Part shown: positions 50,788 through 63,023 of the stretch, in pieces
Numbering within the stretch: the first letter of the stretch is position 1
Layout: each line of letters starts with the position of its first letter
DNA from: Candidatus Eiseniibacteriota bacterium
GTDB lineage: Bacteria; Eisenbacteria; RBG-16-71-46; SZUA-252
Assembly (NCBI GenBank): GCA_036380835.1
Contig: DASVDZ010000004.1
Location: 7,482-71,481, forward strand
Length of the DNA: 64,000 bases
Reading direction: 5' to 3'
Translations under genes and position numbers: made by a program
Notes under the pieces: model-generated
Told to the model about the DNA's origin: nothing
What the model saw: the letters and a program-made list of their open reading frames with translations, nothing else
Databases searched by the model: none

Positions 50788-51807
50788 TCAGCGGCCGAGC
50801 GAGGAGGTCGCCAGGTAGGTGACCGCCGCGACGGCCGCCGCCGCCGGGATGGTGAGCACCCAAGCCCAGACGATGCGCCCGGCCACGCCCCATCGCACCG
50901 CCGAGAGCCGCCGCGTCGAGCCGACGCCCACGATCGCGCCGGTGATCGTATGCGTCGTCGAGACCGGAACGCCGAGGTGGGTCGCCGCGAAGAGGCTGAC
51001 GGCGCCGGCCGTCTCCGCGCAGAAGCCTCCGAACGGGCGGAGCTTCGTGACGCGCGAGCCGAGCGTGTGGACGATCCGCCATCCCCCGGACAGCGTCCCG
51101 AACGCGATCGCCGCGCCGCAGGAGATGACGACCCACGTCGGAATGTAGAAGTGGTCGATCCGCCCCGTCGTCACGAGGAGGAGCGCGATGATGCCCATCG
51201 TCTTCTGGGCGTCGTTCGCGCCATGGCCCAGCGAGTAGAGCGCCGCGGAGAGGAGCTGGAGCCGCCGGAAGAGCTGGTCCACCTTGCCCGGCAGGGCGCG
51301 GCGGAAGATCCACGACGTGACGATCATGTTCCCCCATCCGAGGATGAGCCCCACGAGCGGCGCGACGACGATGAAGACGGCGATCTTCGTCAGCCCCGGC
51401 AGGATCACGGCGGCGATCCCTCCGTAGCACATGGCGGCGCCCACCAGTCCCCCGATCAGGGCGTGGGACGACGACGTGGGGAGTCCGAGCCACCAGGTGA
51501 GCAGATTCCACACGATCGCTCCCACGAGGGCCGAGAGGAGCACGTGGTTGTTGACCGCCTCGGTGATCACGATCCCCTTCCCCACCGTCTTCGCCACGGC
51601 CTCGCCCAGCACGAACACGGCGATGAAGTTGAAGAAGGCAGCCCAGACGACCGCGAATCCCGGCGTCAGGACCCGCGTCGAGACGACCGTCGCGATCGAG
51701 TTGGCGGCGTCGTGGAATCCGTTCAGGTAGTCGAAGAAGAGGGCGAGGACGATGATGAAGAGGACGAGGGGCGAGAACGCGTCGCCGGCGCCGAGGGGGA
51801 CGCTCAC
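50788..51807 (-). CDS. Inorganic phosphate transporter, PiT family
   Basis: 339 aa. PiT signature at both repeats (FFDYLNGFHDAANSIATVVSTR and LGHGANDAQKTMGII). Confidence 0.9.
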   Translation of the reverse strand: MSVPLGAGDAFSPLVLFIIVLALFFDYLNGFHDAANSIATVVSTRVLTPGFAVVWAAFFNFIAVFVLGEAVAKTVGKGIVITEAVNNHVLLSALVGAIVWNLLTWWLGLPTSSSHALIGGLVGAAMCYGGIAAVILPGLTKIAVFIVVAPLVGLILGWGNMIVTSWIFRRALPGKVDQLFRRLQLLSAALYSLGHGANDAQKTMGIIALLLVTTGRIDHFYIPTWVVISCGAAIAFGTLSGGWRIVHTLGSRVTKLRPFGGFCAETAGAVSLFAATHLGVPVSTTHTITGAIVGVGSTRRLSAVRWGVAGRIVWAWVLTIPAAAAVAAVTYLATSSLGR

Positions 51808-51820
51808 CGATCGGCGCCCG

Positions 51821-52435
51821 TCAGTTGTTCTTCACGACGATGCCCTCGAGGATGTTCGCGACGTCCTCGCAGTCGTCCGTCGTGGCCTCGAGGCGCCCGT
51901 ACAGCTCCTTCCACTTGATCAACTCCCGGAAATCGGCCGCGTCCTCGAACAGTTTCGCCGTCATGTTCCGCGAGATGGTATCGGCGTCGTTCTCGAGGGT
52001 ATGGATCTCGACGCAGTAGGCCTGGATCCGCTTCGGGTCCCGGAGGTGCTTCACGGCCTCGCAGATGGCGACGCAGGCGCGCTCGATGATGTCGATCAGC
52101 TCGATCGTCTCGGGCGTGACGCTCTGGACCTTGAAGAGAGCGAACCGGCTCGAGACGCCTTCGATGTTGTCGAGCACGTCGTCGAGGGCGCTGGCGAGCG
52201 CGTGGATGTCCTCGCGATCGAACGGGGTGATGAACGTGCGGTTGAGCGTGCTGATCAGATCGTGCGTGAGCTGATCGCCCCGGCTCTCGAGCTCCTTGAT
52301 GTGTTGCGCCTTCTCCCCGACGTGGTCGAACTGGCGCGCCAACCCCTGGAGCGCCCGCGCGGCCTCGAGGACGGTCTCGGCCTGGGATCCGAAGAGCTCG
52401 AAGAACCGGTGCTCGGTCGGAAGGAATCGCAACAT
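51821..52435 (-). CDS. DUF47 (PhoU-like) protein paired with PiT
   Basis: 204 aa. Start MLRFLPTEHRFFELF, typical of DUF47; the ORF-track Met at 52537 is rejected as an extension. Lies 13 nt upstream of the PiT gene. Confidence 0.8.
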   Translation of the reverse strand: MLRFLPTEHRFFELFGSQAETVLEAARALQGLARQFDHVGEKAQHIKELESRGDQLTHDLISTLNRTFITPFDREDIHALASALDDVLDNIEGVSSRFALFKVQSVTPETIELIDIIERACVAICEAVKHLRDPKRIQAYCVEIHTLENDADTISRNMTAKLFEDAADFRELIKWKELYGRLEATTDDCEDVANILEGIVVKNN

Positions 52436-52521
52436 GGTCGCGCCGTGTATACACCACGGGGGCGCTCCCTGTCCATGTCGCTCTCGCGCGATCGCCCCCG
52501 AGTGCGGTAGGATGCCGCGCC

Positions 52522-53514
52522 ATGGCGGGTCTTCCACGATCCTCGGTCGGCCGATGGCTGCCGGGCACGCTGATCCTGGTCGCGCTGCTCGTCTTCGGGT
52601 TGCGAAACGTCGCGTGGCGCCACTTCTCGGAGATCCTGCAGCGGGCCGAGCCGTCGTGGATCCTGGCGGCCGTCGTGCTGCAGCTCGGCACGTATCTCTG
52701 CGCGGCGGGCGTCCTCCATCGCGGGATCGCCGCCTCCGGCGTGCGGCGCTCGCTCCTCTCGCTCGTCCCCCTCGGCCTCGCCAAGCTCTTCATCGACCAG
52801 GTCGTTCCGACCGGGGGCCTCGGCGGGACCCTCCTGGTGGTGCGAGCGCTCGAGCGGCGCACCGTCCCGCGCGGCGTCGCGACCGCGGCGGTCGTCGTGA
52901 ACATGCTCTCGTTCTACGCGGCCTACGCGATCGCGGTGGCGGCCACGCTGGGAGTGCTCTGGCTCGGCCACAAGTTCCACCCCGCGATCCTCGTCCTCCT
53001 GACCCTGTTCGCGTTCTACGCGACGGCGATGCCGGTGCTGATCCTCTGGATCGTCTACGGCGGCCCCCGGTCCCGCCCGGCGTGGCTCCACCGGGTGCCG
53101 GGCTTCGACGCGGCGCTCCGGGCGATCGAGGAGGCGCCCGCGTCCACGCTCCGTCACCCGCTCCTCTTCCTCGAGTCGATCCTGCTCCAGCTCGCGATCG
53201 TCGTCCTCGACGCGCTGACGCTCGACGTGCTCCTTCGCGCGACCGGACACGTGGCACCCTTCCCGATCGTCTTCACGAGCTTCGTGCTCGCGTCGATCGC
53301 CGCCACGCTGAGCCTTCTTCCGGGCGGCGTCGGGACGTTCGAGGCGGGCTCCGTCGCCTCGCTCCACTACTTCGGCGTGCCGCTCGAGGTCTCCTTGACC
53401 GCGACGCTCCTCGTGCGCGGCTTCACGCTCTGGCTCCCGCTCGTACCCGGCGTCTGGTTCGCGCGCCACGAGATGATGGGGTCGGCGCCGCCCGGCGACG
53501 CGCCCCCGCCCTAG
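52522..53514 (+). CDS. UPF0104 / lysylphosphatidylglycerol-synthase-TM-region-like flippase-type membrane protein
   Basis: 330 aa, about 8 TM helices. The pattern resembles the TIGR00374 family (SILLQLAIVVLDALTLDVLLRATG...SLLPGGVGTFEAGSVASL). Confidence 0.6.
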   Translation: MAGLPRSSVGRWLPGTLILVALLVFGLRNVAWRHFSEILQRAEPSWILAAVVLQLGTYLCAAGVLHRGIAASGVRRSLLSLVPLGLAKLFIDQVVPTGGLGGTLLVVRALERRTVPRGVATAAVVVNMLSFYAAYAIAVAATLGVLWLGHKFHPAILVLLTLFAFYATAMPVLILWIVYGGPRSRPAWLHRVPGFDAALRAIEEAPASTLRHPLLFLESILLQLAIVVLDALTLDVLLRATGHVAPFPIVFTSFVLASIAATLSLLPGGVGTFEAGSVASLHYFGVPLEVSLTATLLVRGFTLWLPLVPGVWFARHEMMGSAPPGDAPPP

Positions 53515-56263: not shown

Positions 56264-56944
56264 GTGAGGACGACCCGGGTCCTCCTCGTCCGCCACGGCG
56301 CCACGGTCCTCTCCGCCGAGGACCGCTTCGCCGGGGAGACCGACGCCGCGCTCTCCGAGGCGGGCGTCGAGCAGGCGCGGCTCCTGGGCGTCCGCCTCGC
56401 GACGGAGGAGATCGCCGCGTTCGTCGCCAGTCCCCTGTCGCGCGCCATGGAGACCGCGCGCCGGATCGCGGCGCCGCACGGCGCGCCCGTCGCCGCCGAA
56501 GCCGCCCTTCGGGAGATCTCGCACGGGCGCTGGGAGGGACAGTCGCGCGCCGAGGTGGAAGCGCTCTTCCCCGACGAGTACGCGCGTTGGGAGCGCGATC
56601 CGTTCACGTTCGCGCCCGAGGGAGGCGAAACCGGACTGGCCGTGACGGCCCGGGCCCTCCCGGCCCTCCTCGCGCTGGTGGCCTCTCACGAGGGCCGCCA
56701 GATCCTGATCGTCTCCCACAAGGCGACGATCCGCCTCCTCCTGAGCTCCCTCCTCGGGTTCGACCCGCGCTCCTACCGGGACCGGCTCGACCAGAGCCCG
56801 GCCGCGCTCAACGTCCTCGACTTCCGTGGCCTCGAGAACGCCCGCCTCTGCCTCTTCAACGACACGTCCCACTACCGCCCTGCCGGCGCCCGGCTCCCCG
56901 ACGCCCCGGCGCCCCGCCTCTCCAAGCGCTGGAGCGCTCCCTAG
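56264..56944 (+). CDS. Histidine phosphatase (phosphoglycerate-mutase-like) family protein
   Basis: GTG start. LLVRHGATVLSAEDRFAGETD (RHG motif) and the second catalytic His region (LIVSHKATIRLL). Confidence 0.8.
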   Translation: MRTTRVLLVRHGATVLSAEDRFAGETDAALSEAGVEQARLLGVRLATEEIAAFVASPLSRAMETARRIAAPHGAPVAAEAALREISHGRWEGQSRAEVEALFPDEYARWERDPFTFAPEGGETGLAVTARALPALLALVASHEGRQILIVSHKATIRLLLSSLLGFDPRSYRDRLDQSPAALNVLDFRGLENARLCLFNDTSHYRPAGARLPDAPAPRLSKRWSAP

Positions 56945-57041
56945 ACCCGAATCGGCGGTCCGACCGTACCCCCGTAACCCAAGCCCTCCCCGCGCCCTCC
57001 GGCGTCGAGACCAGGGTCCATAGGTGCGGGGGTGGTACGCC

Positions 57042-57053
57042 CGGGTATACCCG
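57042..57053. promoter_or_regulatory. 12-bp perfect palindrome CGGGTATACCCG upstream of the NHL/multiheme-cytochrome cluster (candidate operator)
   Basis: It is its own reverse complement, has an AT core in GC-rich DNA, and lies about 60 nt upstream of the NHL gene GTG (57112) and its AGGAGG RBS. Confidence 0.4.
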
Positions 57054-57111
57054 TGGATAGCTAGGCTAACGTCGCCAATTCGACGAGGATAGGTCGTATG
57101 AGGAGGCGGGC

Positions 57112-58101
57112 GTGATCTTGCAGAGCAATCCCATCTTTCGACCGATCCGGAGGGCACCGGCCCTTCCCATGGGCGCGATTTCGATGCTCGCGCTCGGGCT
57201 CGGCGCCGCCTCTGGCGTCTTGGCCGAACCGGCGCCCCTGATCCCCGAGATCGTGGTGCGCGGCTTCGGCGACGACGCGCCCTTCACGCTCCCCCAGGGA
57301 ATCGCGATCGATCCGACCCACGGCGAGATCCTCGTCGCCGACACCGGGCGCCACGCGGTGGAGATCTTCAGCCGCTCGGGGAAACCGCTCTTCCGCTTCG
57401 TGCACGAGGTTCGTCGCGCGGACGGATCGTGGGTCGATGGATCTCCGAGCGGTCTCGCCGCGGGGGTCGACGGGCGCATCTACATCGTCGACATGGCCGC
57501 CCCCTACGTGGACGTCGTGGACGGCCGCGGGCGCCCGCTCTCGCGCCTCGAGCCGCCCGCCGAGGAGGGCGCCGGCAACCCCGGCGCCGTCATGATCACC
57601 CGAACCGGTCTGACCCTCGTCGCCACGTCCGGCGACACGGGCCGGATCCACTGCTTCAACCGGGACGGCTCCTTTCGCCGTTCCTGGGGAACACCGGGCC
57701 CCTCGCCCGGGCAGTTGCGTCACGTTCGTGCCATGGCGGAAGCAAAGGACGGGTCCATCGCCGTCCTCTGCACGGACACGCAGTTCGCCGTGCAACGCTT
57801 CTCCGCCGAAGGATCGTACCTCGATGGCTTTGCCCGGCACGAGATCGGACCGGGTAACGTCTCCCTCCCATCCGGTCTCGCCATAACCGAGGACGGCAGG
57901 CTTTGGGTAAGCGACGAGCTCCGCCAATCCGTCCAGGTTTTCGATAACTCCGGCCGCTTCCTACGCCAGTTGGGCCAGATGGGCGAAGCGAACGGAGAAT
58001 TCCTCTACCCCAGCGCCGTCGCCAGCGACGGCAGCACGCGGCTTGCCGTGATCGAGCGGGTCGGAGCCCGATTCCAGCTCTTCCGGCTGCCGGAGGAATG
58101 A
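57112..58101 (+). CDS. Secreted NHL-repeat (six-bladed beta-propeller) protein
   Basis: GTG start 5 nt after AGGAGG. Signal-like MGAISMLALGLGAASGVLA. Six NHL-type repeats (GIAIDPTHGEILVADTGRHAVEIFSRSGKPL; GVDGRIYIVDMAAPYVDVVDGRGRPL; LPSGLAITEDGRLWVSDELRQSVQVFDNSGRFL; etc.). Confidence 0.8.
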   Translation: MILQSNPIFRPIRRAPALPMGAISMLALGLGAASGVLAEPAPLIPEIVVRGFGDDAPFTLPQGIAIDPTHGEILVADTGRHAVEIFSRSGKPLFRFVHEVRRADGSWVDGSPSGLAAGVDGRIYIVDMAAPYVDVVDGRGRPLSRLEPPAEEGAGNPGAVMITRTGLTLVATSGDTGRIHCFNRDGSFRRSWGTPGPSPGQLRHVRAMAEAKDGSIAVLCTDTQFAVQRFSAEGSYLDGFARHEIGPGNVSLPSGLAITEDGRLWVSDELRQSVQVFDNSGRFLRQLGQMGEANGEFLYPSAVASDGSTRLAVIERVGARFQLFRLPEE

Positions 58102-58183
58102 TCGGCCATGAACGGCACTAGGGAAACCGGCGCGAACGCCCTCCGCGCGGCTTCCGGGCAACCATGGGAAAGAAGGTGACTGC

Positions 58184-59188
58184 ATGAGAACCCTCATGCT
58201 CCTGATTGCGCTCTGTCTCATCGTCGCGTTCGCACCGGCGGCGACGGCGGGCGATTTCCACGTCGGGACGAACCTGGTCTGTAGCGATTGCCACGTGGCG
58301 CACTACAGCCAGTCGCACGCGATGACCTCCGGCGGCACCTCGGTCACGCTCGGCGCCGACGGTCCGTACGATCACCTGCTGCGCAACGAGGTGAACGATC
58401 TCTGCTTGACCTGCCACGACGGCCAGTCGTGGGCTCCCGACGTGTTCGGTGGGAGCGCGACCAACTCCAATCGGCTCGCCGGCGGCTTGAACGCCGACCC
58501 GGCGCACCGCACGAACGAGACCGGCTACGAGACCCCGGACGGCCACACGCTGTGGTCGACCGCGACGGCCCCGGGCGGCACGTTCAGTGAGCCGGTCGGT
58601 CTGGAGTGCACCGACTGCCACGCGCAGCACGGCAGCGCCACCCAGTATCGGAATCTGCTGAACCGCGGTAACTTCACGGGCAAGAACCTGACCTACGCGA
58701 TCGGGACGAACGACCTCACGAAGGACGTCTTCGAGCGCTCGGCGGCCGGGTACACCTCGAGCAACGTCGACTACAACGAGCCGTCGACCAGCGCCAGCGC
58801 GTACGCGAACTGGTGCAAGTCGTGCCATACCGATTTCCATGGCGCGAGCGGCGGCATCGAAGTCGGCGGCGCGAGCAACGGCGGCACGGGCTGGGTGCGT
58901 CACCCGCAGGCCGACGTGAACATCGGCGCCAACGCCACGTTCATTTCGAGCCTCTCGCAGTTCAACGGCCACACGAACCGCGTGAAGGTGATGGACTCGC
59001 AGGGCCTGTGGAACGGGACGGTGGGCGACAACACGGTGACCCCGTCCTGCTTCTCCTGCCACAAGTCGCACGGTAACAAGAACGCGTTCGGCCTCGTCTT
59101 CATGGCCGGAACCGGCACCGTCACGGAAGAGGGCGACGGCGGCGTGTACAAGGATCTGTGCCGCCAGTGCCACATCCAGGGTGGTTGA
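58184..59188 (+). CDS. Secreted hexaheme c-type cytochrome
   Basis: 334 aa, signal peptide MRTLMLLIALCLIVAFAPAATA. Six CxxCH motifs (CSDCH, CLTCH, CTDCH, CKSCH, CFSCH, CRQCH). No CxxCK, so it is not NrfA. Confidence 0.85.
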   Translation: MRTLMLLIALCLIVAFAPAATAGDFHVGTNLVCSDCHVAHYSQSHAMTSGGTSVTLGADGPYDHLLRNEVNDLCLTCHDGQSWAPDVFGGSATNSNRLAGGLNADPAHRTNETGYETPDGHTLWSTATAPGGTFSEPVGLECTDCHAQHGSATQYRNLLNRGNFTGKNLTYAIGTNDLTKDVFERSAAGYTSSNVDYNEPSTSASAYANWCKSCHTDFHGASGGIEVGGASNGGTGWVRHPQADVNIGANATFISSLSQFNGHTNRVKVMDSQGLWNGTVGDNTVTPSCFSCHKSHGNKNAFGLVFMAGTGTVTEEGDGGVYKDLCRQCHIQGG

Positions 59189-59205
59189 TCTAGAACCCGA
59201 TCGAC

Positions 59206-59249
59206 GCGGCCGGCCCCACCTGGGGCCGGCCGCTCGATCCCTTTCTCCC
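59206..59249 (+). terminator. Strong GC hairpin plus pyrimidine tract between the two multiheme cytochrome genes (putative intrinsic terminator/attenuator)
   Basis: GCGGCCGGCCCC-acct-GGGGCCGGCCGC, perfect 12-bp stem at 59206..59233, followed by tcgatccctttctccc. Lies 18 nt after the hexaheme gene stop. Confidence 0.5.
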
Positions 59250-59287
59250 GAGCCCGCCCGGAGTGGCGGGCGGTACGGTGGCGCCGC

Positions 59288-60730
59288 ATGAACCGGGCAA
59301 CCAGGATGGAGACGCCGTACCGGGACCGACCCGAGCGCCCCGGGCTCCGCCGCGCGCTCGTTCCCCTCCTCGCTTCGCTTGCCCTCGTGGCGGCCTCCCG
59401 GCCGGCGCCGCTTCGCACGACCGCCGAGATCGAGAAGATCCTGGCCCGCGGACCGCACGCCGGCGAGTGCGAGCAATGCCATGTGATGCACGGCGCGGAA
59501 ACGTCCCTGCCCGAGCTTCACGCGCTCGTCGGCCCCGACGACAACTCGCTCTGCGACCGCTGCCACACCTCGCCGTGGACGACGGGGAGCTATGCCGGCA
59601 CCTGGATCTATGCCGGCTCCTCGCACGGATCGAGCCCCAACGCCGCGTGGCCCGGCCCCTCGCCCCCGGCACGAACCGAGCTCGGCGCCGCGGGCAAGTG
59701 CGTGAACTGCCACGACGCCCACGGATGGCAGGACGGGCAGGGGGACATCCCGGGCCTCGCCGTCGCGCGCGAGGAGCAGCTCTGCCTCGCCTGCCACAGC
59801 GGCTCCCCGGCCTCGACCAACGTCGGAGCGGACTACGTGAAGGCGTTCCGGCATCCGACGACGACCATCTCCGGCATCCATACCGGGCCCGAGGAGTCGT
59901 CCCCCACCGACTTCGGCGCCGCGCCGGCGAACCGGCGCCACGCCGAGTGCGTCGACTGCCACAATCCGCACGTCGCGACGCACGATCCCTCGACGCCGCC
60001 GCCCGACGACAACCTGTCGCGCGTGAACTATGGCGTGAGCCGGGTCCGCGTGACGAACGGCGGGGCCGGCTCGCCGCCGACCTTCACCTTCGTCGCGGCG
60101 TCCGATACGTTGAGCCCGCCCCTCGCCGAGTACGAGCTCTGCTTCAAGTGCCATTCGTCGTGGACGGTCCAGCCGAGCGGGCAGACCGATCTGGCCGCGG
60201 CGCTCAATCCCTCCAATCCCTCGTACCACCCGGTGGAGTCCGTCGGCCGCGACCCGTCGATCCGGATCGGCGCCTTCGCCCCGGGATGGGGGCCGACGTC
60301 GCTCACGCGGTGCGGCTCGTGCCACGGCAGCGATTTCGGAACCACCGAGGGCCCGCACGGCTCGTCCTACCGCTACATCCTCCGGGCGTCCTACGCGGCG
60401 TCAACGGCGCCGCGCACGATGACCTCCGATGAGATCTGCTTCACGTGCCACGCGTACGACGTCTACGCGAACCCCACCTCGTCGGCGGCCACGCTGACCC
60501 AGTCGCGATTCAACGAACCGGGGGACGCGAAGGGGCACGCGCGGCACGTGGGCGAGGAGAACGTCCCCTGCTACGGCTGCCACGTGACGCACGGCTCGTC
60601 GACGCTTCCCCACCTCCTCGTCACGGGGCGAATCCCCGGCATCGCGGCGTACACCGAGACCCCGACTGGGGGCACCTGCCAGCCGACCTGTCACGGCTCC
60701 GAGAGTTACTCGGTGAACTATGCTCGATGA
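59288..60730 (+). CDS. Secreted multiheme (about 10-heme) c-type cytochrome
   Basis: 480 aa; signal RRALVPLLASLALVAAS (an alternative start is METPYR at 59306). Nine CxxCH (CEQCH, CDRCH, CVNCH, CLACH, CVDCH, CFKCH, CGSCH, CFTCH, CYGCH) plus one CX3CH-type (CQPTCH). Confidence 0.85.
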   Translation: MNRATRMETPYRDRPERPGLRRALVPLLASLALVAASRPAPLRTTAEIEKILARGPHAGECEQCHVMHGAETSLPELHALVGPDDNSLCDRCHTSPWTTGSYAGTWIYAGSSHGSSPNAAWPGPSPPARTELGAAGKCVNCHDAHGWQDGQGDIPGLAVAREEQLCLACHSGSPASTNVGADYVKAFRHPTTTISGIHTGPEESSPTDFGAAPANRRHAECVDCHNPHVATHDPSTPPPDDNLSRVNYGVSRVRVTNGGAGSPPTFTFVAASDTLSPPLAEYELCFKCHSSWTVQPSGQTDLAAALNPSNPSYHPVESVGRDPSIRIGAFAPGWGPTSLTRCGSCHGSDFGTTEGPHGSSYRYILRASYAASTAPRTMTSDEICFTCHAYDVYANPTSSAATLTQSRFNEPGDAKGHARHVGEENVPCYGCHVTHGSSTLPHLLVTGRIPGIAAYTETPTGGTCQPTCHGSESYSVNYAR

Positions 60731-62411
60731 GAGCGAGCCCGGCGCGGCGGGGTGTCCGAGGCGAGGGCTCCTCGCGACCGTTCTCGCCGCGGCGACGCTC
60801 CTCGGACTCGCCGCCGCTCCCGCCGCCGCCGCGCCGACGCCGCAGTCGCTCCGTGGATTCGCCCAGGTGCAGTACGAGAGCCAGGACCAGCGGGGCGGTC
60901 TCGCCGACGACGTCCAGTGGTGGACGCGCACCCTCCAGGTGGACTACACCACGCGCCTCAAGGATGAGCTCAACGTCGCCGCGCAGGGCGTCTGGAGCGA
61001 CCTTTCCTACATCGACCGCCCCGATCGTCGTACGCAACCGCGCGGCTCGATCCGGCTCGCCCACCGGTTCTTCGGAGCCAGCGCTTCCTACCGCCCGCTC
61101 CGGACCACCGACGCGCTCGGCGTCACCGTCCGGCAGCGCGAGACCCTCTTCTCCGGCTATCTCCTCAGACCCGGGTGGCCCTCGGTGACCGGGACGTGGA
61201 TCCGGCGCCACCAGCTCGAGAACGTGGGCGGCCCGGCGGCGACCGGGGTCACGCGGTCGGTCCAGGCGAACCACCAGCTCGGCCCCCTCAACGTCCGCGG
61301 CTCCTGGGGCGATCAGATCCGTTTCGTCGGGGAGGATCAGGTCCGCACGTTCACGCAGACCAACTTCGGCGGCGGCGGCACGTTCGCCGTCACGCGCGGG
61401 AGCGCGAACGCGGCGCTCCAGTACGACTTCCAGGGCGTCCAGAGCGGGGCCCCGGGAGCCGTCCTCCAGCGGACCGGGATCCACGCGGCGCAGGGCTCGG
61501 CGATGAACCGGTTCTCGAAGCGTTTCGACGCCGCAGCGAGCTACGTCTACCACCGGACGATCGTGCGGAACAACGTCCGGACCGATCTGGACGAGCACGA
61601 GGGCGCCCTGTTGGGGAATTGGCGGATGACGCAAGCGCTGCGCCTCACGTCGGGCGGTGGGCTCCGCACCGCTCGGTTGGAGTCCCGGCAGCGGACCGAA
61701 CGCTACGTGCTCGCGACCGCGGCCGCGGAAGGCGCCATCCGGAGGGGCATGACCGGAGTCGCCGCGGTGACGCGTTCCTACAATTGGTTTCCCGGAGAAA
61801 CGCCCCATCCGGTCGACGCCTATCACGCCGGGGGGCGCGTTCGCCTCGCGCGCGGACTCGACGCGAACGCCGACGCCCAGGTGACCGCGTCGAGGAGCCG
61901 CGCCGCGATCGCCGATACCGCGGGCGGACCGACGCGCGTGACGGCGCAGTCGGGGTTCGGCTTCGTCGCCGTTCCCCTTCAACCCATCAGCGTGGCCTTC
62001 TCGTGGCGCGAGTATCGCACCGGGGCCTCGCTCTTCGATCCATCGGCGCGGGCCCGGTCGAGCACGTGGGAGACCCGCTGGAATCCCTCCACCGCGCTCT
62101 CGTTGAACGCGACGCTGGGCCGCTCCCGAGGGCTCGGCGCGAGCGAACCGGTGGTTACGACCGCGACCGCGAACGCCGCCTGGCGGCCCCGCGCTTCCCT
62201 CGATCTTTCCGGATCCTATACGCGAAGCGATCGCGTACGATTCGACCCCACCTCGGGTATCAGCGTCGGGCGGGAGGTCTACGGCGCCCGGCTCCTCGCG
62301 TCCATCGCCACCGACTGGCGCGTCCAGGTCGCGGCGACCGACGCCGACCCGGGCCGTCCCAGCCACGTTCGCCAGTGGGACCTCTCTCTGACCAAGGCGT
62401 TTCGGAGGTAA
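60720..62411 (+). CDS. Predicted outer-membrane beta-barrel protein (porin-like), co-operonic with the multiheme cytochromes
   Basis: 563 aa; overlaps the cytochrome stop by 11 nt. Signal LLATVLAAATLLGLAAAPAAAA. Mature part rich in alternating hydrophobic/polar beta-strand patterns and Gly/Tyr/Trp/Arg, ending ...WDLSLTKAFRR with Phe near the C-terminus. No enzyme motifs. Confidence 0.55.
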   Translation: MLDESEPGAAGCPRRGLLATVLAAATLLGLAAAPAAAAPTPQSLRGFAQVQYESQDQRGGLADDVQWWTRTLQVDYTTRLKDELNVAAQGVWSDLSYIDRPDRRTQPRGSIRLAHRFFGASASYRPLRTTDALGVTVRQRETLFSGYLLRPGWPSVTGTWIRRHQLENVGGPAATGVTRSVQANHQLGPLNVRGSWGDQIRFVGEDQVRTFTQTNFGGGGTFAVTRGSANAALQYDFQGVQSGAPGAVLQRTGIHAAQGSAMNRFSKRFDAAASYVYHRTIVRNNVRTDLDEHEGALLGNWRMTQALRLTSGGGLRTARLESRQRTERYVLATAAAEGAIRRGMTGVAAVTRSYNWFPGETPHPVDAYHAGGRVRLARGLDANADAQVTASRSRAAIADTAGGPTRVTAQSGFGFVAVPLQPISVAFSWREYRTGASLFDPSARARSSTWETRWNPSTALSLNATLGRSRGLGASEPVVTTATANAAWRPRASLDLSGSYTRSDRVRFDPTSGISVGREVYGARLLASIATDWRVQVAATDADPGRPSHVRQWDLSLTKAFRR

Positions 62412-62417
62412 CCCTCG

Positions 62418-63023
62418 ATGACGGTGCGTCCGCAAGGCACGATCCGGCCCTCCCTCGCGTGGCTCCTGGCCGCCTCGTTGCTGGCCCTCGCTCCGGGCTG
62501 CGCGTCGGGCCCGCGCCTCTACGTGAACTCGGAGGCCGATCTCGCCTTCTACAAGAAGATCGCGGTCCTCCCGTTCACGAATCTAAGCGCCGAGCGATTC
62601 GCCGGCGAGCGGGTGACGCGCGGATTCCTCGTCGAGTTGACCATGGCCGAGCGCTACCAGATCGTGGATCCCGCCGAGTTCCTCGCCCTGCTCGACAAGA
62701 TGGGCGGGCTCCCGGGATCCAACGGCATCTACGACCCCGCGAAGCTCAAGGACGCGGCGACGCAGGTCGGCGCGAATGCCGTGCTCCGAGGCGCCGTGAC
62801 CGAATTCCGGATGCAGCGGACGGGGAATTCCGAGATCCCCGTGGTCGCCTTCGACGTCGAGCTGATCGACGTCGCGACGTCGAACGTGATCTGGCGCGGC
62901 TCGATCGGGAAGCGGGGCAAGGGACGCGTCCCGGTTTTCGGCGGCGGCCAGCGGACGTACGCCGGCCTCGTCGAGAGCGCGAGCCGCGAGCTGGTGGGGC
63001 GGCTCGAGAAGGAGGGCTTCTGA
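62418..63023 (+). CDS. Small lipoprotein (LpoB/TolB-N/CsgG-like fold candidate), paralog 1
   Basis: 201 aa, RBS GGAGGT, lipobox-like LLALAPGC. Conserved block KKIAVLPFTNLSA ... ANAVLRGAVTEF ... SNVIWRG shared with the next gene. Confidence 0.7.
   Translation: MTVRPQGTIRPSLAWLLAASLLALAPGCASGPRLYVNSEADLAFYKKIAVLPFTNLSAERFAGERVTRGFLVELTMAERYQIVDPAEFLALLDKMGGLPGSNGIYDPAKLKDAATQVGANAVLRGAVTEFRMQRTGNSEIPVVAFDVELIDVATSNVIWRGSIGKRGKGRVPVFGGGQRTYAGLVESASRELVGRLEKEGF

Follow-up and report, generated by a model that had tools for sequence, protein, structure and literature searches.

Does a heme motif with one residue too many still bind heme, and if it does, is that heme exceptional? This question is raised by a cytochrome gene in a 64,000-nucleotide stretch of Candidatus Eiseniibacteriota DNA (contig DASVDZ010000004.1), which we analysed as a whole and refer to as the window. 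The encoded protein carries nine canonical CxxCH motifs and, near its C-terminus, a single C-x3-CH (Cx3CH). In this analysis we found that the Cx3CH is almost certainly, judging from its conservation, a tenth heme attachment site, and that among the sequences compared it is the hallmark of a whole family and not a peculiarity of this gene. The gene, the third of an operon, and the ten sites of this decaheme cytochrome are given below as read from the translation; site 1 is invariant in 117 orthologues, sites 2 to 10 were also placed in the alignment of these orthologues, and site 10 in a structural model as well.

59288..60730, + strand: decaheme c-type cytochrome, gene 3 of the operon, 480 amino acids
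59468..59482, + strand: heme site 1, CEQCH (C61-H65), then VMH68
59552..59566, + strand: heme site 2, CDRCH (C89-H93)
59699..59713, + strand: heme site 3, CVNCH (C138-H142), then DAH145
59783..59797, + strand: heme site 4, CLACH (C166-H170)
59948..59962, + strand: heme site 5, CVDCH (C221-H225), then NPH228
60140..60154, + strand: heme site 6, CFKCH (C285-H289)
60311..60325, + strand: heme site 7, CGSCH (C342-H346)
60437..60451, + strand: heme site 8, CFTCH (C384-H388)
60569..60583, + strand: heme site 9, CYGCH (C428-H432), then VTH435
60677..60694, + strand: putative heme site 10, CQPTCH (C464-H469), non-canonical, in a predicted beta-hairpin

The original prediction of nine CxxCH motifs plus a C-x3-CH in the context TCQPTCHG near the C-terminus matches the translation of 59288-60730 exactly. 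The nine CxxCH motifs start at C61, C89, C138, C166, C221, C285, C342, C384 and C428, and the single Cx3CH is CQPTCH (C464-H469; coding DNA tgc cag ccg acc tgt cac, nt 60677-60694), which lies 12 residues before the C-terminus in the peptide GGTCQPTCHGSESY. All 20 cysteines of the protein fall within the ten heme motifs, with none to spare, and by composition alone only 0.045 Cx3CH motifs would be expected in it. The N-terminus consists of a basic stretch followed by a hydrophobic helix (residues 21-35), which fits Sec export, and with this export signal, ten sites and sufficient histidines the protein has the general features of a c-type multiheme cytochrome. The G+C content at third codon positions (GC3) is 0.91, as expected of a real gene in a window of 70% GC. 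Ala, Pro, Ser, Gly and Thr abound in the protein, and Lys makes up 1% of it; a similar enrichment of Thr, Ser, Ala and Gly has been described for extracellular multiheme cytochromes (PMC5566968). NCBI has an entry of 100% identity, 'cytochrome c3 family protein [Candidatus Eisenbacteria bacterium]', which stems from a 73.8-kb contig of a metagenome-assembled genome (MAG).

The case for a tenth heme site is carried by conservation. In an alignment of 117 orthologues (alignment A1, 57-100% identity to the decaheme cytochrome) C464, C468 and H469 are invariant, and so are G461, Y474 and Y478 close by, while 76 of the 117 sequences have Pro at position 466 and 113 have Thr or Ser at position 467. 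The Cx3CH is found at the same place in 118 of the 120 best homologues (57-100% identity); one of the two exceptions is truncated and the other has Cx5CH. The family extends far beyond these sequences. A scan of one genome per species returned more than 575 loci with relatives of the decaheme cytochrome, in Eisenbacteria, Acidobacteriota, Myxococcota, Verrucomicrobiota, Nitrospirota, Binatia, Planctomycetota, Chloroflexota and Bacillota, and a profile search of 1.84 billion cluster representatives gave 2684 relatives, 521 of them at E <= 1e-30. In many of the latter search's relatives the decaheme module forms the C-terminal end of a much larger cytochrome. We compared the terminal site in 156 distant relatives, namely 50%-identity cluster representatives and genome loci whose match reached the C-terminus of the profile, some of them at about 30% identity and drawn from Eisenbacteria, Acidobacteriota, Myxococcota, Verrucomicrobiota, Nitrospirota, Planctomycetota, Chloroflexota and further groups: it is Cx3CH in 136, Cx4CH to Cx17CH in 15 and a clear CxxCH in only one. 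The CH dipeptide is kept behind a spacer of 3-17 residues in 151 of the 156, and since it is kept while the spacer varies, the motif behaves as a heme site and not as a disulfide. A local sequencing or frameshift artefact was ruled out because the motif is kept in hundreds of independent assemblies. Among ten diverse cluster representatives we found no cultured or characterised family member, all being MAG-derived and generically named.

Two groups of relatives deserve separate mention. Proteins of about 730-1160 amino acids (stop-to-stop lengths of the open reading frames) have 13 CxxCH motifs and a terminal Cx3CH, corresponding to 14 hemes (L025, L027, L034, L036, L039-L042, L052, L056, L058 and L063; in L042 the terminal motif is Cx6CH instead). 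They occur in Verrucomicrobiota, Binatia and Deltaproteobacteria MAGs, often with an adjoining gene for an NHL-repeat protein, and their heme count equals the one reported for Desulfovibrio ferrophilus DFE_0461. Distant relatives with 15-42 hemes, mostly from Bacillota, show terminal Cys/His arrangements that are not CXnCH (FCSTSHAH, CSVSHGQH, CTDAMCQTHG; L066, L073-L075, L079, L080, P0153, P0157, P0160, P0173 and P0196). As far as these sequences tell, Gram-positive lineages have evidently seen at least one remodelling of the terminal site.

The architecture of the protein places the Cx3CH where a heme motif would be expected. The spacing of the motifs had been described as irregular, with intervals of about 28 to 75 residues. 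Start to start the intervals are 28, 49, 28, 55, 64, 57, 42, 44 and 36, so that variation along the protein is real and the upper limit is 64. As an anomaly, however, the spacing does not hold up: across 116 orthologues each interval spans only 0-4 residues, and the last is always 36. What appears irregular is a rigidly conserved arrangement of five doubled-CXXCH units (motif pairs 61/89, 138/166, 221/285, 342/384 and 428/464), and a degenerate or unusual cytochrome was ruled out by this conservation. Four of the five first partners have the pattern CxxCHxxH. The whole protein scores 75.6 bits with Pfam Paired_CXXCH_1 (cut-off 20.6) and 42.4 bits with TIGR01905 (cut-off 25.2), and units 1-4 taken individually reach 21.5-30.7 bits, all above the Paired_CXXCH_1 cut-off. 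In unit 5 the Pfam alignment ends at about C464-Q465, the expected place of the second motif; by its position in the sequence the Cx3CH is the second site of doubled-CXXCH unit five. The decaheme cytochrome is, by score, a member of the Paired_CXXCH_1 cytochromes (PF09699 / TIGR01905), with which it shares the repeated CxxCHxxH...CxxCH unit and a periplasmic or secreted nature. It differs from other members in the fixed Cx3CH of its last unit and in the long conserved inserts of 28 to 64 residues between its units, and the five-unit arrangement as a whole is shared with no characterised doubled-CXXCH protein. With one heme per 48 residues the protein is densely packed with hemes, yet ordinary in this respect: multiheme cytochromes in general have ~60-70 +/- 30 residues per heme and MtrA has ~33 (PMC5566968).

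An AlphaFold2 (AF2) model of the decaheme cytochrome was built, without hemes, from the 117 sequences. Its mean predicted local distance difference test score (pLDDT) is 68.6, with values of 80-94 over much of the C-terminal 160 residues. The region of site 10 is predicted as strands 452-458, 461-466 and 472-475, which form a hairpin with a pLDDT of ~80. The original prediction had been made with the proviso that orthologues might lack CQPTCH or that the motif might lie outside the folded domain. Neither is the case: the Cx3CH is kept in nearly all relatives, and in the model the site sits inside the domain, beside the invariant G461, Y474 and Y478, and not in a dispensable tail. The alignment further contains 13 conserved histidines outside the motifs (57, 68, 113, 145, 189, 198, 218, 228, 314, 357, 417, 420 and 435; H435 is present in 116 of 117 orthologues), and it shows neither a spare Cys or Lys that is conserved nor a Met that is invariant. 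These 13 histidines are enough for bis-His ligation of ten hemes, and the suggestion that the Cx3CH marks a functionally special heme found no support. Cx3CH as such is an accepted heme-binding variant (PMC11492766).

The motifs and how well they are conserved, the domain content, the synteny and the barrel prediction described below were observed or computed; from them we infer heme attachment, the axial ligands, the location in the cell, the way electrons flow and the protein to which heme 10 is coupled, as follows. The decaheme cytochrome would be exported by Sec and built of five doubled-CXXCH two-heme units. C464 and C468 would form the two thioether bonds, and the iron of heme 10, which closes the chain, would be ligated on its proximal side by H469. 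With one more residue in the loop (consensus C-x-P-[TS]-C-H), the family would attach this heme in a manner of its own, to a C-terminal beta-hairpin and not to a turn of a helix. Bis-His ligation and a role in electron transfer are probable for all ten hemes; H435 is the likely distal ligand of heme 10, a guess by analogy with the CxxCHxxH of the other units. The protein would act as a heme wire within a conserved operon. Because the module closed by heme 10 is in turn the end of many larger cytochromes, this heme is most likely a hand-over site between proteins, with the barrel lumen, a hexaheme cytochrome or an NHL scaffold as possible partner. The operon itself would most likely be a conduit of the porin-cytochrome type that moves electrons across the outer membrane of Candidatus Eisenbacteria and bacteria of other soil and sediment phyla. 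Taken as a whole, this explanation (a ten-heme wire, CQPTCH as the site of heme 10, and the operon as a porin-cytochrome conduit) seems to us the probable one.

Comparison with known cytochromes gave few points of contact. The decaheme cytochrome is not a member of the MtrA/DmsE family (TIGR03508, 38 bits against a cut-off of 192.2), of the GSU2203 decaheme family (NF041028, 21.3 against 325) or of the class III cytochromes c3 on which its NCBI name is based (PF02085, 15.1 against 22.9), and its score with Cytochrom_c3_2 is 20.9 bits against a cut-off of 25. When the family profile was compared with PDB sequences, no solved structure was found at E < 1e-3; the best matches were marginal and local (cytochrome c552 at E 0.0026, and reaction-centre cytochromes), and MccA, OmcS, OmcZ, OmcE, MtrA, MtrC and OcwA were absent even at E <= 1. 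In a fold search the decaheme model had no match to MccA, OmcS, OmcZ, OmcE or MtrA. With only marginal local PDB matches at hand, we dismissed homology to MccA, OmcS, OmcZ, OmcE, MtrA and OcwA; the kinship with MccA and the Geobacter OmcS/OmcZ families that had been considered at the outset was thus negative by sequence as well as by fold.

Variant heme motifs are CX15CH in MccA, CX4CH in cytochrome c3 and CXXCK in NrfA; in the decaheme cytochrome no Cx5-20CH motif, CX15CH included, was found. MccA resembles it in having a non-canonical spacing between heme cysteines inside a multiheme protein. The spacer is, however, only one residue longer than the canonical one, compared with 13 in MccA, there is no homology between the two, no catalytic or copper site is evident in the decaheme cytochrome, and a dedicated lyase is not consistently linked to it. 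MtrA, DmsE, MtoA and PioA form a family threaded in the MtrB/PioB barrel (PDB 6R2Q); apart from the missing membership and the lack of a PDB sequence or fold match, the decaheme cytochrome differs from MtrA in being longer, with 48 residues per heme against ~33. One branch of MtrA carries a Cx3CH with a Cys ligand at heme 1 (10.1101/2025.05.29.656830), whereas the Cx3CH described here is at heme 10.

How far an electron-conducting function is plausible depends on the neighbouring genes. The operon around the decaheme gene reads as follows in the window and, for its last gene, in four long orthologous contigs (L081-L084).

57112..58101, + strand: gene 1, secreted NHL-repeat six-bladed beta-propeller, 329 amino acids (Pfam NHL 2.1e-17; DUF5128 6-bladed propeller)
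58184..59188, + strand: gene 2, hexaheme c-type cytochrome with signal peptide and three doubled-CXXCH units, 334 amino acids (Pfam Paired_CXXCH_1 3.2e-15)
59206..59233, + strand: 12-bp GC-rich perfect stem with a 4-nt loop and no T-tract, in the 99-nt hexaheme-decaheme spacer
60720..62411, + strand: gene 4, predicted outer-membrane beta-barrel of ~28 strands with signal peptide and no plug, 563 amino acids
62418..63023, + strand: gene 5, probable lipoprotein, LpoB/GNA1162-like, 201 amino acids (Pfam LpoB 2.3e-8)
63023..63655, + strand: gene 6, second lipoprotein with lipobox LAGC, paralogue-like partner of gene 5 (translation)
63652..64000, + strand: gene 7, small secreted protein, cut by the window end, resembling by eye the products in L081, L083 and L084
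L081 14978-18136, L082 14852-18013, L083 15145-18396, L084 14836-18039: 42-heme gene, last gene of the orthologous operons

The genes are tightly packed: gene 4 starts 11 nt inside the end of the decaheme gene, overlapping its stop codon, and the ATG of gene 7 overlaps the stop codon of gene 6. The hexaheme cytochrome has CxxCH motifs at C33, C74, C142, C211, C289 and C326; it passes the Pfam model of MtrC/MtrF domain II/IV (32.2 bits, cut-off 30) and fails the OmcA/MtrC family model (24.3 bits against 209.3). Gene 4 belongs to no Pfam or NCBIfam family, with ten homologues by word search; it is confidently modelled as a plug-less barrel of ~28 strands, and MtrB is the structural match with the longest alignment. 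The counterparts of gene 7 in L081, L083 and L084 have 161-239 amino acids and belong to no known family. L081-L084 contain the full unit of eight genes, the eighth being a cytochrome of 1050-1083 amino acids with 42 CxxCH motifs, 25 residues per heme and no Pfam match on record; by analogy its equivalent in our genome would lie past nt 64000. With this cytochrome of the orthologues included, the operon encodes 58 hemes in total. Across 80 related loci the NHL gene is found in 54, the hexaheme gene in 37 and the lipoprotein genes in 28. The gene order recurs in Eisenbacteria loci and, with weaker similarity, in Acidobacteriota, Nitrospirota and Anaeromyxobacter MAGs, and as the flanking genes differ between genomes the eight-gene unit is self-contained. 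It is this context that most deserves attention: the cytochrome family is large, spans many phyla, is uncharacterised and bears a terminal CXnCH as its signature, and it is set in a distinct operon of the porin-cytochrome type. Going by sequence comparison, the family seems to be common to uncultured phyla of soil and sediment (Eisenbacteria, Acidobacteriota, Verrucomicrobiota, Myxococcota and others), as does the operon in many cases.

Two kinds of known gene clusters are comparable with this operon. Clusters of porin and cytochrome genes define the Mtr, Pcc and PCC3/PCC4 systems (PMC5566968), and a 2026 preprint describes syntenic porin-cytochrome clusters in peat Acidobacteriota and Verrucomicrobiota (10.64898/2026.05.27.727921). 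Like Geobacter Pcc (OmaB-OmbB-OmcB), PCC3/PCC4 and the EET1-EET4 systems from peat, in which a porin is clustered with periplasmic and outer cytochromes, the operon has a gene for a large, predicted plug-less outer-membrane barrel that adjoins cytochrome genes. Partners very rich in hemes are also a feature of PCC3, and EET1 is, by its description, a porin-scaffold-cytochrome system in Acidobacteriota, a phylum that carries the decaheme family as well. There are differences: a conserved inner-membrane b-type protein as in PCC3/PCC4 is missing, and so are lipoprotein cytochromes such as OmcB or MtrC, the N-termini of the hexaheme and decaheme cytochromes having no canonical lipobox and the lipoproteins of the operon being heme-free and LpoB-like. 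Compared with Mtr, the NHL, LpoB-like and 42-heme partners stand in place of MtrC, and the barrel has ~28 strands against 26 in MtrB and belongs to no MtrB family. The compositions would fit a division of labour: that of the decaheme and hexaheme cytochromes (Ser, Thr, Gly, Pro and Ala, with very little Lys in the former) a place inside the barrel or at the surface, and the Lys/Glu-rich N-terminal part of the 42-heme protein, seen by eye in L084 only, a periplasmic wire.

The second kind of cluster combines NHL and multiheme genes; in D. ferrophilus it has been connected with the extracellular exchange of electrons (PMC5815863, PMC9769857); the uet cluster of Ca. Tenderia, also with NHL and multiheme genes, has been linked to the same process (10.1101/2022.05.06.490989). 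By gene content the operon resembles DFE_0448-0451 and DFE_0461-0465 of D. ferrophilus IS5, Geobacter metallireducens Gmet_0556 and the uet cluster, all of which have NHL beside several multihemes and whose cytochromes are proposed to exchange electrons with solids; in our set the NHL gene adjoins multiheme cytochromes as it does in the D. ferrophilus type of cluster. The cytochromes of the D. ferrophilus type have 12-14 hemes if CXnCH is counted, which by description resembles the 13+1-heme relatives mentioned above. Unlike the decaheme operon, the D. ferrophilus genome has no apparent porin-cytochrome conduit genes, and the uet cluster differs in its tri-, tetra- and undeca-heme proteins, peptidyl-prolyl isomerase and cupredoxin.

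A further question is whether the unusual site has its own maturation factor. Specialised lyases are paired with variant motifs in the cases of NrfE for CXXCK and CcsA1 for CX15CH, and the general Ccm system of E. coli can mature CX3CH and CX4CH variants, which counts against the need for a dedicated lyase. Two of the orthologous contigs contain a lone CcmF-like gene (PF01578 + PF16327), divergent and beside the NHL gene.

L081 4921-7116, L082 4900-7101, - strand: CcmF-like gene (Cytochrom_C_asm + CcmF_C), outside any ccm operon

On its other surroundings this gene is flanked by unrelated glycogen-metabolism genes. CcmF-type tryptophan-rich open reading frames were also noted near the operon in seven more Eisenbacteria loci, one Deltaproteobacteria locus and one Nitrospirae locus (L006, L008, L012, L015, L017, L018, L037, L019 and L065). 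Where the position was worked out (L006, L017 and L018), the frame lies just upstream of the NHL gene; in the Deltaproteobacteria locus and, as a partial frame, in the Nitrospirae locus it lies downstream of the decaheme gene. A search of the 64-kb window for the tryptophan-rich motif of CcmF/CcsA found none, and close to the operon this genome thus has no gene for a dedicated lyase. The CcmF genes next to the cluster recall by analogy the NrfE and CcsA1 pairs, yet the pattern is not universal: such a gene could encode a lyase devoted to the non-canonical site, or it may be the only CcmF of the organism.

Several observations weigh against the explanation we prefer. All family members come from MAGs with generic names, and their heme content is a prediction from sequence; the AF2 model is apo and of moderate confidence, with a pLDDT of 45-60 in the N-terminal half; unit 5 scores 12.2 bits and remains below the Paired_CXXCH_1 cut-off; and very distant relatives, mostly from Bacillota, lack the CH at the terminal site (CSTSHAH, CSVSHGQH). 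Some of this could be accommodated if the hairpin were stiffened by C464 and C468, joined in a CX3C disulfide or holding a small metal site, with H469 as distal ligand of a neighbouring heme in a nonaheme protein. The Cys/His tails of the Bacillota type (FCSTSHAH, CTDAMCQTHG) hardly look like classical c-heme sites, the weak score of unit 5 is in line with a missing heme motif, and a beta-hairpin is an atypical setting for CxxCH. We nevertheless regard a disulfide or metal site as very improbable: a disulfide would fix the spacer and needs no adjacent His, whereas the CH persists behind spacers of variable length, the site stands at the second-motif position of a doubled-CXXCH unit, and the 13 other conserved histidines exceed the nine distal ligands that a nonaheme protein could use. 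If the site does hold heme 10, as we propose, that heme might still be catalytic or unusually tuned, like the CX15CH heme of MccA, the CXXCK heme of NrfA or heme 1 of the MtrA branch with Cx3CH and Cys, and be matured by a dedicated lyase of the CcmF/NrfE type. In such a large family a terminal site that is almost never CxxCH speaks for selection for the non-canonical loop, the cluster-adjacent CcmF-like genes and tryptophan-rich frames point the same way, and altered ligation with Cx3CH is known in MtrA homologues (10.1101/2025.05.29.656830). A special heme of this kind is unlikely, however, as no gene with the lyase's WWD motif was found in the 64 kb of the window, in L083 or in L084, so that the link is not obligatory, as the conserved histidines can supply bis-His ligation to all ten hemes and no spare Cys or Lys is conserved and no Met invariant, and as there is no homology to MccA or NrfA.

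The conduit has its own weak points. The hexaheme and decaheme cytochromes have no lipobox, in contrast to the cytochromes at the surface in Mtr and Pcc; the operon showed no gene for an inner-membrane quinol oxidase; and TonB-dependent receptors score slightly above MtrB as structural matches of gene 4. It might be that the operon is no outer-membrane conduit at all, that its cytochromes are periplasmic and store electrons or serve as redox partners, and that the barrel and the lipoproteins have an unrelated envelope function and are co-transcribed for historical reasons. A barrel that has no sequence family and matches TonB-dependent barrels at least as well as MtrB would suit such a history, as would a cluster with neither lipoprotein cytochromes nor an inner-membrane quinol oxidase. 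But the strict gene order with overlapping frames, from the NHL gene to the 42-heme cytochrome and in distinct genomes, speaks against such a reading, as do the plug-less barrel of ~28 strands, wide enough for a heme wire as in MtrAB, and the total of 58 hemes encoded by the operon; a chance association of this sort is in our opinion quite unlikely. A porin-cytochrome conduit with a ten-heme wire thus remains the reading we favour.

In a bolder version of it, a terminal CXnCH (n >= 3) heme, needed for hand-over or gating, would be the defining feature of an unrecognised, very widespread class of outer-membrane electron conduits, consisting of an NHL scaffold, a 6-heme and a 10-heme cytochrome, a 28-strand barrel, two LpoB-like lipoproteins and a 42-heme wire, and some lineages would employ a dedicated, cluster-linked CcmF/NrfE-like lyase. 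We consider this doubtful. If it were true, it would add a new case to those in which a specialised heme lyase goes with the motif it matures. In practical terms the conserved terminal Cx3CH offers a simple sequence signature by which the family can be recognised, and site 10 is a defined target for mutagenesis that might reveal the effect of a loop one residue longer on a heme at the entry or exit of the wire. If the operon is an extracellular conduit, it bears on the share of anaerobic respiration in soil and peat that uses solid or humic acceptors. For the question posed at the outset this means that the Cx3CH is genuine, yet a trait of the family, and that a special function of heme 10 is unproven.

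Some minor features of the locus remain to be described. The last motif of the hexaheme cytochrome, CRQCH, is 4 residues away from the C-terminus. The hexaheme-decaheme spacer (59189-59290) folds as RNA at -61.8 kcal/mol (z = -4.0), and a terminator and promoter scan of 56900-60800 found nothing; with no terminator called and no T-tract, the hairpin is not a canonical terminator, and it may set the relative expression of the two cytochromes or the stability of their mRNA. Upstream of the operon, a PHO4/PiT phosphate transporter gene and a PhoU-like gene are found both in the window (50788-52537, - strand; assigned by reading the translations of open reading frames) and in L084 (5647-7300, - strand), the copy in the window having extra genes for an M3 peptidase and a histidine phosphatase inserted. 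This neighbourhood is probably residual synteny outside the system.

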